Virus record (IMG/VR): IMGVR_UViG_2718218396_000012
Source: a virus
Lineage: Duplodnaviria > Heunggongvirae > Uroviricota > Caudoviricetes
DNA: 38,480 nucleotides
Strand: one strand, 5' to 3'
Shown here one piece after another: positions 36,001 to 38,480 of the stretch (positions are counted from its first letter, which is position 1; every line of letters begins with the position of its first letter). A program made the position numbers.

Positions 36001-38480
36001 GAAAATCGCTAACGGAGAAAAGACAGTAAGTCAGTATATGAAAACCGCATGATATCATCAGATAAAAATCGATCGTAAAGCGAAATATTAATACCAGAAT
36101 AAACGAGTCGAGGTAAATTATATTACCTCGATAAATTAACTAAAACTTGCCCGCTATATACTATCTCATTCAGTATCATCACGCGCGGTCTGTGCATATG
36201 TTACTACCGCACCTAATGTATTAATTTTCTTTTCAACATAGATAATATTATCGTACTCATAATTGCCATACGGATAGCAAATGCGAATATTCTCATGTAG
36301 ATCGGGGTCATCCACCTCAGCTCCAGAACAACTTTTTGAACTACCGGAAGTATACCGATACGGTGCAACATAAGACGATGTCTCTCCAGGCAAAAAATAA
36401 GTTAGTGTTGTAAGGGGTATAATCAGAAAAAATCCAGCAAATATGCACATCCCTGCATAAACCTTAAGGTATGCTGACAGACTCTTCCAGCCGCTTTGTT
36501 TTACTATCCCCTTCTTAACCCAAAACAGAGATAACAGAAAAGCTATTCCCATGCTAAACAGAATGTAATAGTGGGATATACTCTGATTAAGAAACGTGAC
36601 CCTGTAAATATCTGCCCGCCACCAGAAGAAAAGGAAAATAAAGATCAGGCCTAAAACTGTCATGCAAATCAAATAAGGATACGAATCTTTTTTCATGTTT
36701 AGCGCCCATAAAATTTTTCCTGCCCCGGACAAATTTACCATCCATTTTTTGCGCAGAAAATAGCTCATTACTTACTGCACAATAATACACAAAATTGCGT
36801 AAATTTTTTGCATGGATTTTAGCTCTTTCAGCCGACGTTTAAGGGGTAAATAGCATTTCCTAAAAGCAACTGCACCAACCCAACAGAATGAGCTACCGCT
36901 TACGTTGAGAGCAAAAAAGTGTATAGCAGCAATGAACAGCATCCTCGCACTGACGAGGATTTCTTTTATCTGAACTCGCTACGGCGGGTTTTGTTTTATG
37001 GAGATGATAAATGCACTTCCGAGTCACAGGTGAATGGAATGGAGAACCATTCAACAGAGTTATCGAAGCAGAGAACATCAATGACTGCTATGACCACTGG
37101 ATGATATGGGCGCAGATAGCACATGCAGACATAACCAATATTCGAATTGAAGAACTGAAAGAACACCAAGCCGCCTGATGGCGGCTTTTTCTTGCGTGTA
37201 ATTGCGGAGACTTTGCGATGTACTTGACACTTCAGGAGTGGAACGCACGCCAGCGACGCCCAAGAAGCCTTGAAACAGTTCGTCGATGGGTGCGCGAATG
37301 CAGGATATTCCCTCCTCCGGTTAAGGATGGAAGAGAGTATCTGTTCCACGAATCAGCGGTAAAGGTTGACTTAAATCGACCAGTAACAGGTAGCCTTTTG
37401 AAGAGGATCAGAAATGGGAAGAAGGCGAAGTCATGAGCGCCGGGATTTACCCCCTAACCTTTATATAAGAAACAATATTACTGCTACAGGGACCCAAGGA
37501 CGGGTAAAGAGTTTGGTTTAGGCCGAGACAGGAGGATAGCAATCACTGAAGCAATACAGGCCAATATTGAGTTATTTTCAGGACACAAACACAAGCCTCT
37601 GACAGCGAGAATCAACAGTGATAATTCTGTTACGTTACATTCATGGCTTGATCGCTACGAAAAAATCCTCGCCAGCAGAGGAATCAAGCAGAAGACACTC
37701 ATAAATTACATGAGCAAAATTAAAGCAATAAGGAGGGGGCTGCCTGATGCTCCACTTGAAGACATCACCACAAAAGAAATTGCGGCAATGCTCAATGGAT
37801 ACATAGACGAGGGCAAGGCGGCGTCAGCCAAGTTAATCAGATCAACACTGAGCGATGCATTCCGAGAGGCAATAGCTGAAGGCCATATAACAACAAACCC
37901 GGTCGCTGCCACTCGCGCAGCAAAATCAGAGGTAAGGAGATCAAGACTTACGGCTGACGAATACCTGAAAATTTATCAAGCAGCAGAATCGTCACCATGT
38001 TGGCTCAGACTTGCAATGGAACTGGCTGTTGTTACCGGGCAGCGAGTTGGTGATTTATGCGAAATGAAGTGGTCTGATATCGTAGATGGATATCTTTATG
38101 TCGAACAAAGCAAAACAGGCGTAAAAATTGCCATCCCTACAACATTGCATGTTGATGCTCTCGGGATATCAATGAAGGAAACACTTGATAAATGCAAAGA
38201 GATTCTTGGCGGAGAAACCATAATTGCATCTACTCGTCGTGAACCGCTTTCATCCGGCACAGTATCAAGGTATTTTATGCGCGCACGAAAAGCATCAGGT
38301 CTTTCCTTCGAAGGGGATCCGCCTACCTTTCACGAGTTGCGCAGTTTGTCTGCAAGACTCTATGAGAAGCAGATAAGCGATAAGTTTGCTCAACATCTTC
38401 TCGGGCATAAGTCGGACACCATGGCATCACAGTATCGTGATGACAGAGGCAGGGAGTGGGACAAAATTGAAATCAAATAA

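Follow-up and report, generated by a model that had tools for sequence, protein, structure and literature searches.

A mobile single-gene cassette of prophage Sp3 and phage 434 encodes a predicted three-helix membrane protein with a two-cysteine periplasmic domain, possibly a superinfection-exclusion factor

The closest described counterparts of the gene considered here come from two bodies of phage work. SieA of phage P22 is an inner-membrane protein of 162-164 amino acids (aa) with three predicted helices, which blocks DNA injection and for which escape mutations lie in ejection proteins (PMC10883804). The gpA-gpQ region of P2-like phages (old/tin in P2) is a hotspot of many anti-phage systems, several of which have been validated experimentally, and its fourth most frequent cargo (system #4 of Table S5B, with 470 occurrences) is a single protein of 181 aa that is listed with no Pfam domain and as "3 TM" (Rousset et al., 2022, PMC9122126). 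Here, we describe a gene in the IMG/VR record IMGVR_UViG_2718218396_000012, a stretch of 38,480 nucleotides (referred to at its full length as the window), which is prophage Sp3 of Escherichia coli O157:H7 Sakai (= CP-933K of EDL933), with an integration site that adjoins ybhC. The gene lies in a 200-codon open reading frame (ORF) on the minus strand at 36166..36768, corresponding to ECs_0804/WP_000120056, and is annotated in every case as "hypothetical protein". From its context and architecture we read it, tentatively, as encoding a prophage-expressed inner-membrane superinfection-exclusion protein.

The window protein aligns with the system #4 protein at 51% identity over 168 aa (BLASTP E = 3e-56), sharing the motif CSGAxVDDPDL...ICYPYG, and belongs to the same family; both combine three helices with a two-cysteine domain in a single-gene system. 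Alleles with 70-79% identity to the window copy were likewise encountered in P2-like prophages. The catalogue of Rousset et al. (2022) covers the P2 hotspot, whereas the lambdoid context of the window copy lies outside that study. No activity test of system #4 was found in those parts of the text and supplements of PMC9122126 that were available, and the family has already been catalogued, as an unnamed supplementary-table entry and apparently without testing.

Like SieA, which is prophage-expressed, the window gene stands alone, is oriented against its neighbours and has a putative promoter of its own; both products measure about 160-180 aa, and three helices are predicted in each. The likeness is functional and architectural only. 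Homology to SieA was considered and rejected (hhalign probability 0.1%), and the motif FxRYPxEAxxFNK of the SieA family (types A-C) is absent from the window protein; that conserved motif is predicted to be cytoplasmic, in a protein that lacks a disulfide-bonded periplasmic beta domain. SieA genes are moreover confined to P22-like prophages, where they sit between genes 16 and 9, whereas the window family moves among lambdoid prophages, P2-like prophages and chromosomes. A second point of comparison is gp15 of phage HK97, which stands for the YebO-like exclusion proteins. It, too, is a membrane protein that a phage of the lambdoid type encodes in a moron, here one that has a terminator of its own, but it is 62 aa in size and encoded in the tail gene cluster; homology was rejected here as well (hhalign probability 0.5%). 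In work by Cumby and colleagues dating from 2012, gp15 is said to block the entry of HK97 DNA. The DUF1093/YxeA-like proteins and further small OB-like barrels with a membrane anchor (PDB 3npp, 2k5q; YhhM DUF2500, 3q6c) were also considered for comparison.

A first-pass annotation of this DNA had described the gene as coding for a 200-aa protein, AT-rich and opposed to the pL-side genes. The 200-codon ORF is present, its GC content is 38.8% against 49.8% for the window, and its strand is indeed opposite to that of exo, the traR-like gene, orf55, xis and int. The conserved protein, however, comprises 176 aa and starts at the ATG at 36696, which is M25 of the 200-aa ORF:

36166..36696, minus strand: conserved coding sequence of 176 aa, with its ATG at 36696 and a TGA stop at 36168-36166 (ECs_0804/WP_000120056 minus 24 annotated codons)
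36697..36768, minus strand: the 24-codon extension to 200 aa, probably 5' leader and promoter DNA and non-coding

This start is favoured because of the alignment of homologues, the presence of upstream stop codons and a promoter-like element inside the extension. Distant homologues are 166-189 aa long and, with few exceptions, their alignment begins at M25, with the motif MKKxSYP. An in-frame stop codon precedes M25, with no alternative start, in 16 of the 24 non-lambdoid loci; in P2-borne alleles this stop (TGA or TAA) lies 4-7 codons before the conserved ATG, and the window frame upstream of 36696 is open only via changes of TGA to TGG and of TAA to TTA. The invariant promoter-like element, TGGTAAATT, falls within the supposed first 24 codons. 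Among the near-identical lambdoid alleles, both polymorphisms in the extension are first-position changes.

Downstream of this start, the ORF is a real gene under selection. Comparison with alleles that are 70-79% identical gives a ratio of nonsynonymous to synonymous substitution rates (dN/dS) of 0.09-0.10, and 11 of the 18 substitutions that distinguish 26 near-identical lambdoid alleles in the 176-codon region fall at third codon positions. The idea of a chance ORF or a decaying remnant draws on the state of the prophage, which is itself defective. A bet remnant at 33676-34323 lacks its N-terminus and abuts ninE, and therefore the gam-cIII-N-cI-cro-cII-O-P region, with the immunity and replication functions, is missing; int (37710-38480) is a pseudogene in the Sakai annotation, and the adjacent orf56 is probably not coding. 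Nevertheless, the low dN/dS, the skew of variation towards third codon positions, the constant architecture of homologues in more than ten genera and the confident AlphaFold2 (AF2) models refute this idea and leave it a vanishingly small probability. The three-helix gene has remained intact within a defective Sp3, in agreement with the first-pass view that it is not obviously degraded.

The architecture of the protein was modelled by AF2 on a 22-sequence alignment, and residue numbers refer to the 176-aa protein. The model has a mean predicted local distance difference test (pLDDT) score of 86 and consists of three long helices, a short strand in loop 1 and a five-stranded beta domain (105-171); the C-terminal domain modelled alone scores 88. 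Hydropathy agrees with AF2 on the three helices, so that the N-terminal helical membrane region noted in the first pass is well supported:

36610..36684, minus strand: transmembrane helix 1, residues 5-29 (AF2, hydropathy)
36514..36585, minus strand: transmembrane helix 2, residues 38-61, after the short conserved periplasmic loop IYRVTFL (AF2, hydropathy)
36394..36489, minus strand: transmembrane helix 3, residues 70-101, after a Lys-rich cytoplasmic loop (AF2, hydropathy)
36169..36393, minus strand: C-terminal five-stranded beta-barrel domain, residues 102-176 (75 aa), predicted periplasmic
36328..36330, minus strand: codon of invariant Cys123 (C147 in 200-aa numbering)
36277..36279, minus strand: codon of invariant Cys140 (C164 in 200-aa numbering), the presumed disulfide partner

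The topology is predicted from the positive-inside rule. Averaged over 28 diverse members, the N-terminus has a net charge of +1.4, loop 1 one of +0.5 and loop 2 one of +3.7; because Lys and Arg are concentrated at the N-terminus and in loop 2, the N-terminus would be cytoplasmic and the C-terminal domain periplasmic. The soluble, cysteine-containing C-terminal domain of the first-pass description is therefore retained as a beta domain with two invariant cysteines, but it is predicted to face the periplasm and not the cytoplasm. This domain carries the motif CSGAxVxDPxL...IRICYPxGxY...VEKRSNxLGxVV and is the best-conserved part of the protein, above the helices. It contains exactly two cysteines in 28 of 28 diverse members, and these are the sole invariant residues of the family, which would fit a structural disulfide in the periplasm.

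Such an architecture could also belong to a membrane protein that acts in abortive infection as an effector or sensor. Its periplasmic domain would sense tail penetration or envelope damage, and its helices would then oligomerise, depolarise the membrane and kill the infected cell. A stand-alone membrane protein in a defence hotspot would suit this role, and transmembrane proteins in known defence systems are usually suicide effectors (PMC9122126). However, the helix cores are almost uncharged (mean Lys + Arg of 0.2-0.7 and mean Asp + Glu of 0.1-0.3 per helix in the 28 members), conservation is highest in the periplasmic domain and not in the helices, no partner sensor gene is present, and an intact gene resides in about 18% of complete E. 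coli genomes, all of which makes an abortive-infection function improbable.

The superinfection-exclusion reading draws on the genomic contexts in which the gene occurs. In lambdoid phages it lies between the traR-like gene and orf55-xis. This holds for phages 434, 2B8 and mEp332 as well as for many prophages of E. coli, among them the apparently intact one of strain YD786. Phage 434 shares with the window a 1.35-kb segment with the gene that is 99.5% identical; the gene is designated CPT_434_36 there, "putative membrane protein", and is 99% identical to the window gene. The first-pass annotation had assigned this position to the lambda ea/b-region slot next to int-xis; the neighbours agree with that description, but the slot belongs to the exo-xis region and not to the b region. 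The flanking genes are:

35734-35955, plus strand: TraR/DksA zinc-finger gene (Pfam E = 8e-9), on one flank of the ORF
37011-37178, plus strand: orf55, on the other flank, followed by xis
37218-37436, plus strand: xis (Exc E = 4e-41)

The orf55 gene is lambda p35-like (PHROG 676) and is conserved beside xis in many phages of the lambdoid and P22-like groups; the sequence on its upstream side is mosaic.

In E. coli and Salmonella, P2-like prophages carry alleles with 51-79% identity to the window gene. These are flanked by the portal gene Q on one side and the replication gene A on the other, are convergent with A and have variable neighbours. The window copy itself is thus not in the gpA-gpQ slot, which is filled by these relatives. 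The gene is stand-alone in that it is present as a single gene whose neighbours vary. Overall, 962 of 5426 complete E. coli genomes (about 18%) carry at least 80% of it.

Between the window and the P2-borne alleles, about 76% DNA identity extends from about 36833 to 36059-36076, that is, from 137 nt 5' of the ATG to about 100 nt beyond the stop codon (about 0.8 kb). The shared unit and its elements are as follows:

36059..36833, minus strand: mobile cassette (moron) with promoter region, gene and hairpin, delimited by blastn of the window against four other loci (L101, L104, L017 and L022)
36732..36740, minus strand: putative extended -10 promoter element TGGTAAATT (TGnTAAATT), from consensus match and conservation
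36774..36803, minus strand: TTGTGCA-like direct repeats with 10-bp phasing, on the upstream side of the putative promoter; they may serve in regulation or DNA curvature
36108..36131, minus strand: terminator-like hairpin, 35 nt past the stop codon (dG -12.9 kcal/mol, z = -2.85)

The TGnTAAATT element is kept in all five aligned sequences, which comprise lambdoid, E. coli P2-like and Salmonella P2-like alleles. The hairpin stem is maintained in P2-borne alleles by a compensatory change from A-U to G-C, and its T-tract is weak. With its own promoter region, ORF and hairpin, the gene behaves as a classical moron; it is inserted in opposition to pL transcription, a short way upstream of the 434 terminator tL4. 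On the pL strand (plus), terminator-like hairpins at 36941-36960 and 36972-36991 surround tL4 as annotated in the 434 int-xis record M60848, and directly follow the antisense passage through the three-helix gene; with these pL-strand hairpins (36937-36991) in place, leftward transcripts that are not antiterminated would stop there.

The TTGTGCA-like repeats are conserved in both lambdoid and P2-borne alleles, and in one Salmonella allele (L108, about 5890-5935) they are expanded to four near-perfect ATTGTGCAGT copies. Part of the repeats is annotated as a CII consensus in the phage 434 record. CII-activated promoters of the pRE, pI and paQ type have a TTGC-N6-TTGC sequence that straddles the -35 region, with a weak -10 element following after about 13 nt. 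In the window, TTGT-N6-TTGT is found at 36792-36779, but about 41 nt separate it from the one -10-like element that is conserved, and the pattern occurs at chance frequency in the window. A CII-dependent promoter is judged unlikely because of this frequency, the 41-nt gap and the persistence of the repeats in P2-like prophages, where CII of the lambda type is not expected. Close by, a 56-aa ORF at 36772-36942 (minus strand) bears the phage 434 label "putative membrane protein" (CPT_434_35) and has no call from the Prokaryotic Genome Annotation Pipeline (PGAP). Its lambdoid alleles show one indel and only first- and second-position substitutions; given the indel and the lack of third-position changes it was rejected as a gene and is probably non-coding promoter or leader DNA.

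The superinfection-exclusion reading is thus suggested by a putative promoter of the gene's own, a free orientation, a conserved part that would face the periplasm and the occupation of accessory slots in two unrelated types of temperate phage, and it gains indirect support from the P2 alleles of the cassette, which occupy a validated anti-phage hotspot. According to the mechanism that we propose, the lysogen would express the gene, since it points against pL transcription and would be free when pL is repressed, and the protein would act at the inner membrane. There, the periplasmic domain and the conserved first periplasmic loop would bind one of two targets, either a component that incoming phages need for the passage of DNA across the inner membrane, or proteins of the phage itself that serve in ejection or as tape measure. 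In either case the genome would be kept out and the cell would not be killed. The phage-borne copies would be versions, co-opted or shared, of an envelope protein of enterobacteria.

A number of observations weigh against this proposal. No defence activity and no phenotype is known for any family member, and none is among the cloned or tested constructs in the available parts of the supplements of Rousset et al. (PMC9122126). The same study records that some cargo of the P2 hotspot has no part in defence, for instance partition systems and a toxin. The PADLOC-DB v2 hidden Markov models of defence genes gave no match at E <= 1. Lysogen expression, localisation and topology are predictions, and the Shine-Dalgarno sequence of the window allele is poor. 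The lambdoid slot, which the first pass had taken for a known hotspot of exclusion and defence genes, is mosaic in JEP4, Chlobot and HK106 and holds mostly co-oriented early genes of unknown function; judged from the phages examined, it is not a recognised defence hotspot. The carriers include both siphovirus-type and myovirus-type prophages, and hence the gene is not tied to the injection machinery of its carrier, unlike SieA. Furthermore, the gene is found at chromosomal loci without phage genes in Klebsiella, Enterobacter, Hafnia, Proteus and Cedecea (the Cedecea copy adjoins a possible integrase fragment). In seven Enterobacter genomes it is syntenic, beside a GGDEF gene and an AI-2E transporter gene, and the orthologues are 63-97% identical compared to 82-97% for the neighbours. 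This synteny, with a divergence only moderately above that of the neighbours, shows that the gene is vertically inherited in Enterobacter, and the family is therefore not purely a phage weapon. The earlier idea of an exclusion or defence function is thus supported in part, and indirectly, by the P2 hotspot, for which the argument from location is stronger than for the lambdoid slot, and is weakened by the Enterobacter orthologues.

These syntenic orthologues, which diverge only moderately more than their neighbours, are the main argument for a different role, that of an envelope or lysogenic-conversion factor unrelated to defence, a cellular inner-membrane/periplasmic protein that would act, for example, in homeostasis, stress tolerance or signalling and travel as a host-fitness moron. 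Lambda carries bor and lom as morons of this kind. The non-phage loci in Klebsiella, Hafnia, Proteus and Cedecea point in the same direction, as do the non-defence cargo of the P2 hotspot and the presence of the non-defence morons lpxR and pphA in the same window. On the other hand, the chromosomal loci show no conserved functional partner or operon, the phage copies recur in accessory positions, including one where defence genes are enriched, and the narrow and patchy distribution is typical of accessory rather than housekeeping genes. A function of this type is an alternative to be taken seriously, although we hold it to be doubtful. As for a conserved chromosomal partner, the LysR neighbours in Klebsiella and Enterobacter were considered and rejected, as they are different genes in different orientations. 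The other morons of Sp3, following the Sakai annotation, are lpxR (lipid A 3'-O-deacylase) and pphA (Ser/Thr phosphatase), at 30827-31786 (plus strand) and 31998-32663 (minus strand).

One chromosomal neighbourhood bears on a further alternative, in which the protein protects from an imported toxin (a colicin or bacteriocin) or from filamentous phage by interference with import through the Tol/Ton machinery, as an orphan immunity-like protein. Immunity proteins against pore-forming colicins have a similar size and three-helix architecture, and orphan copies of the window family are scattered in chromosomes. In Hafnia alvei, a 134-aa lipoprotein with an LVGC lipobox and a TolA C-terminal domain (PF06519, E = 1e-13) is encoded at 6571-6975 of L016, 64 nt downstream of the homologue, and is followed by an outer-membrane beta-barrel gene and phoPQ. 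This TolA-like neighbour may hint at a link to Tol-dependent import, in Hafnia only. However, the TolA-like gene is found in this one genus, no toxin gene adjoins the family at any locus examined, and immunity proteins against pore-formers are not known to have a 75-aa periplasmic domain; protection of this kind therefore seems very improbable.

Beyond these contexts, 1.84 billion cluster representatives were searched exhaustively with a profile, and 61 of them matched, about 30 at full length. Homologues were at least 42% identical in a first search and reached down to 16-30% identity by profile search; a second profile search with a 28-member profile added nothing, and no homologue carries a Pfam domain. 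One profile match of 3074 aa, P0118, was dismissed as a repetitive protein and not a true relative of the family. Named members come from Escherichia, Shigella, Salmonella, Klebsiella, Enterobacter, Cedecea, Citrobacter/Phytobacter, Pseudescherichia, Hafnia, Proteus, Providencia, Erwinia and a few Pseudomonas. A gene copy that is 98% identical is also found on a 3.5-kb contig (L026, JARKOR010000073.1) in a metagenome-assembled genome (MAG) of 'Candidatus Nanosynbacter' (Saccharibacteria); the contig almost certainly stems from an E. coli prophage and was assigned to this MAG by a binning error.

The first-pass annotation had reasoned that homology to a known, unrelated protein or a lack of conservation elsewhere would tell against its view. 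The family is conserved in other prophages, other genera and chromosomes, and searches of Pfam, NCBIfam, PADLOC, a viral structure library and the PDB returned no known protein. The only Pfam hit was to DUF6057 (E = 0.32, 10 bits against a cut-off of 29.8 bits). No NCBIfam entry matched the window protein, the PDB sequence-profile search gave nothing below E = 0.47, and the BFVD viral structure library nothing below E = 0.2. PHROG 1416, a family of unknown function, is the exception: its whole 90-position profile is matched by the C-terminal 88 residues of the window protein (E = 2e-50). This profile spans only helix 3 and the C-terminal domain and apparently derives from truncated gene calls. 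The family is thus a narrow orphan, which these searches do not link to any annotated family. A literature search on WP_000120056 and ECs0804 found no paper on the gene, and the phage 434 genome paper states only that the 434 morons differ from those of lambda.

A broader form of the superinfection-exclusion reading would make the family a common single-gene entry-exclusion system of Enterobacteriaceae. In this form, the disulfide-bonded periplasmic barrel would block a genome-translocation step that is shared by several types of tailed phage, or else Tol/Ton import, and the cassette would shuttle between lambdoid prophages, the P2 old/tin locus and chromosomes. We consider this broader form unlikely, but its consequences would be considerable. 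An immunity function that has gone unnoticed would be present in phage 434 and in about 18% of complete E. coli genomes, and the family could lead to a new host or phage entry factor.

In kind, such a gene would not be surprising, since prophages are expected to carry genes of this sort. Were the family not to serve in defence, it would still be a well-defined orphan family of envelope proteins with a confident fold model. If, however, the protein does exclude superinfecting phages, few blocks to phage entry that prophages encode would be more widespread in E. coli. This would bear on the host range of phages in therapy and on the reading of the old 434/lambda hybrid experiments, and the protein could give access to the inner-membrane step of phage DNA entry, about which little is known.

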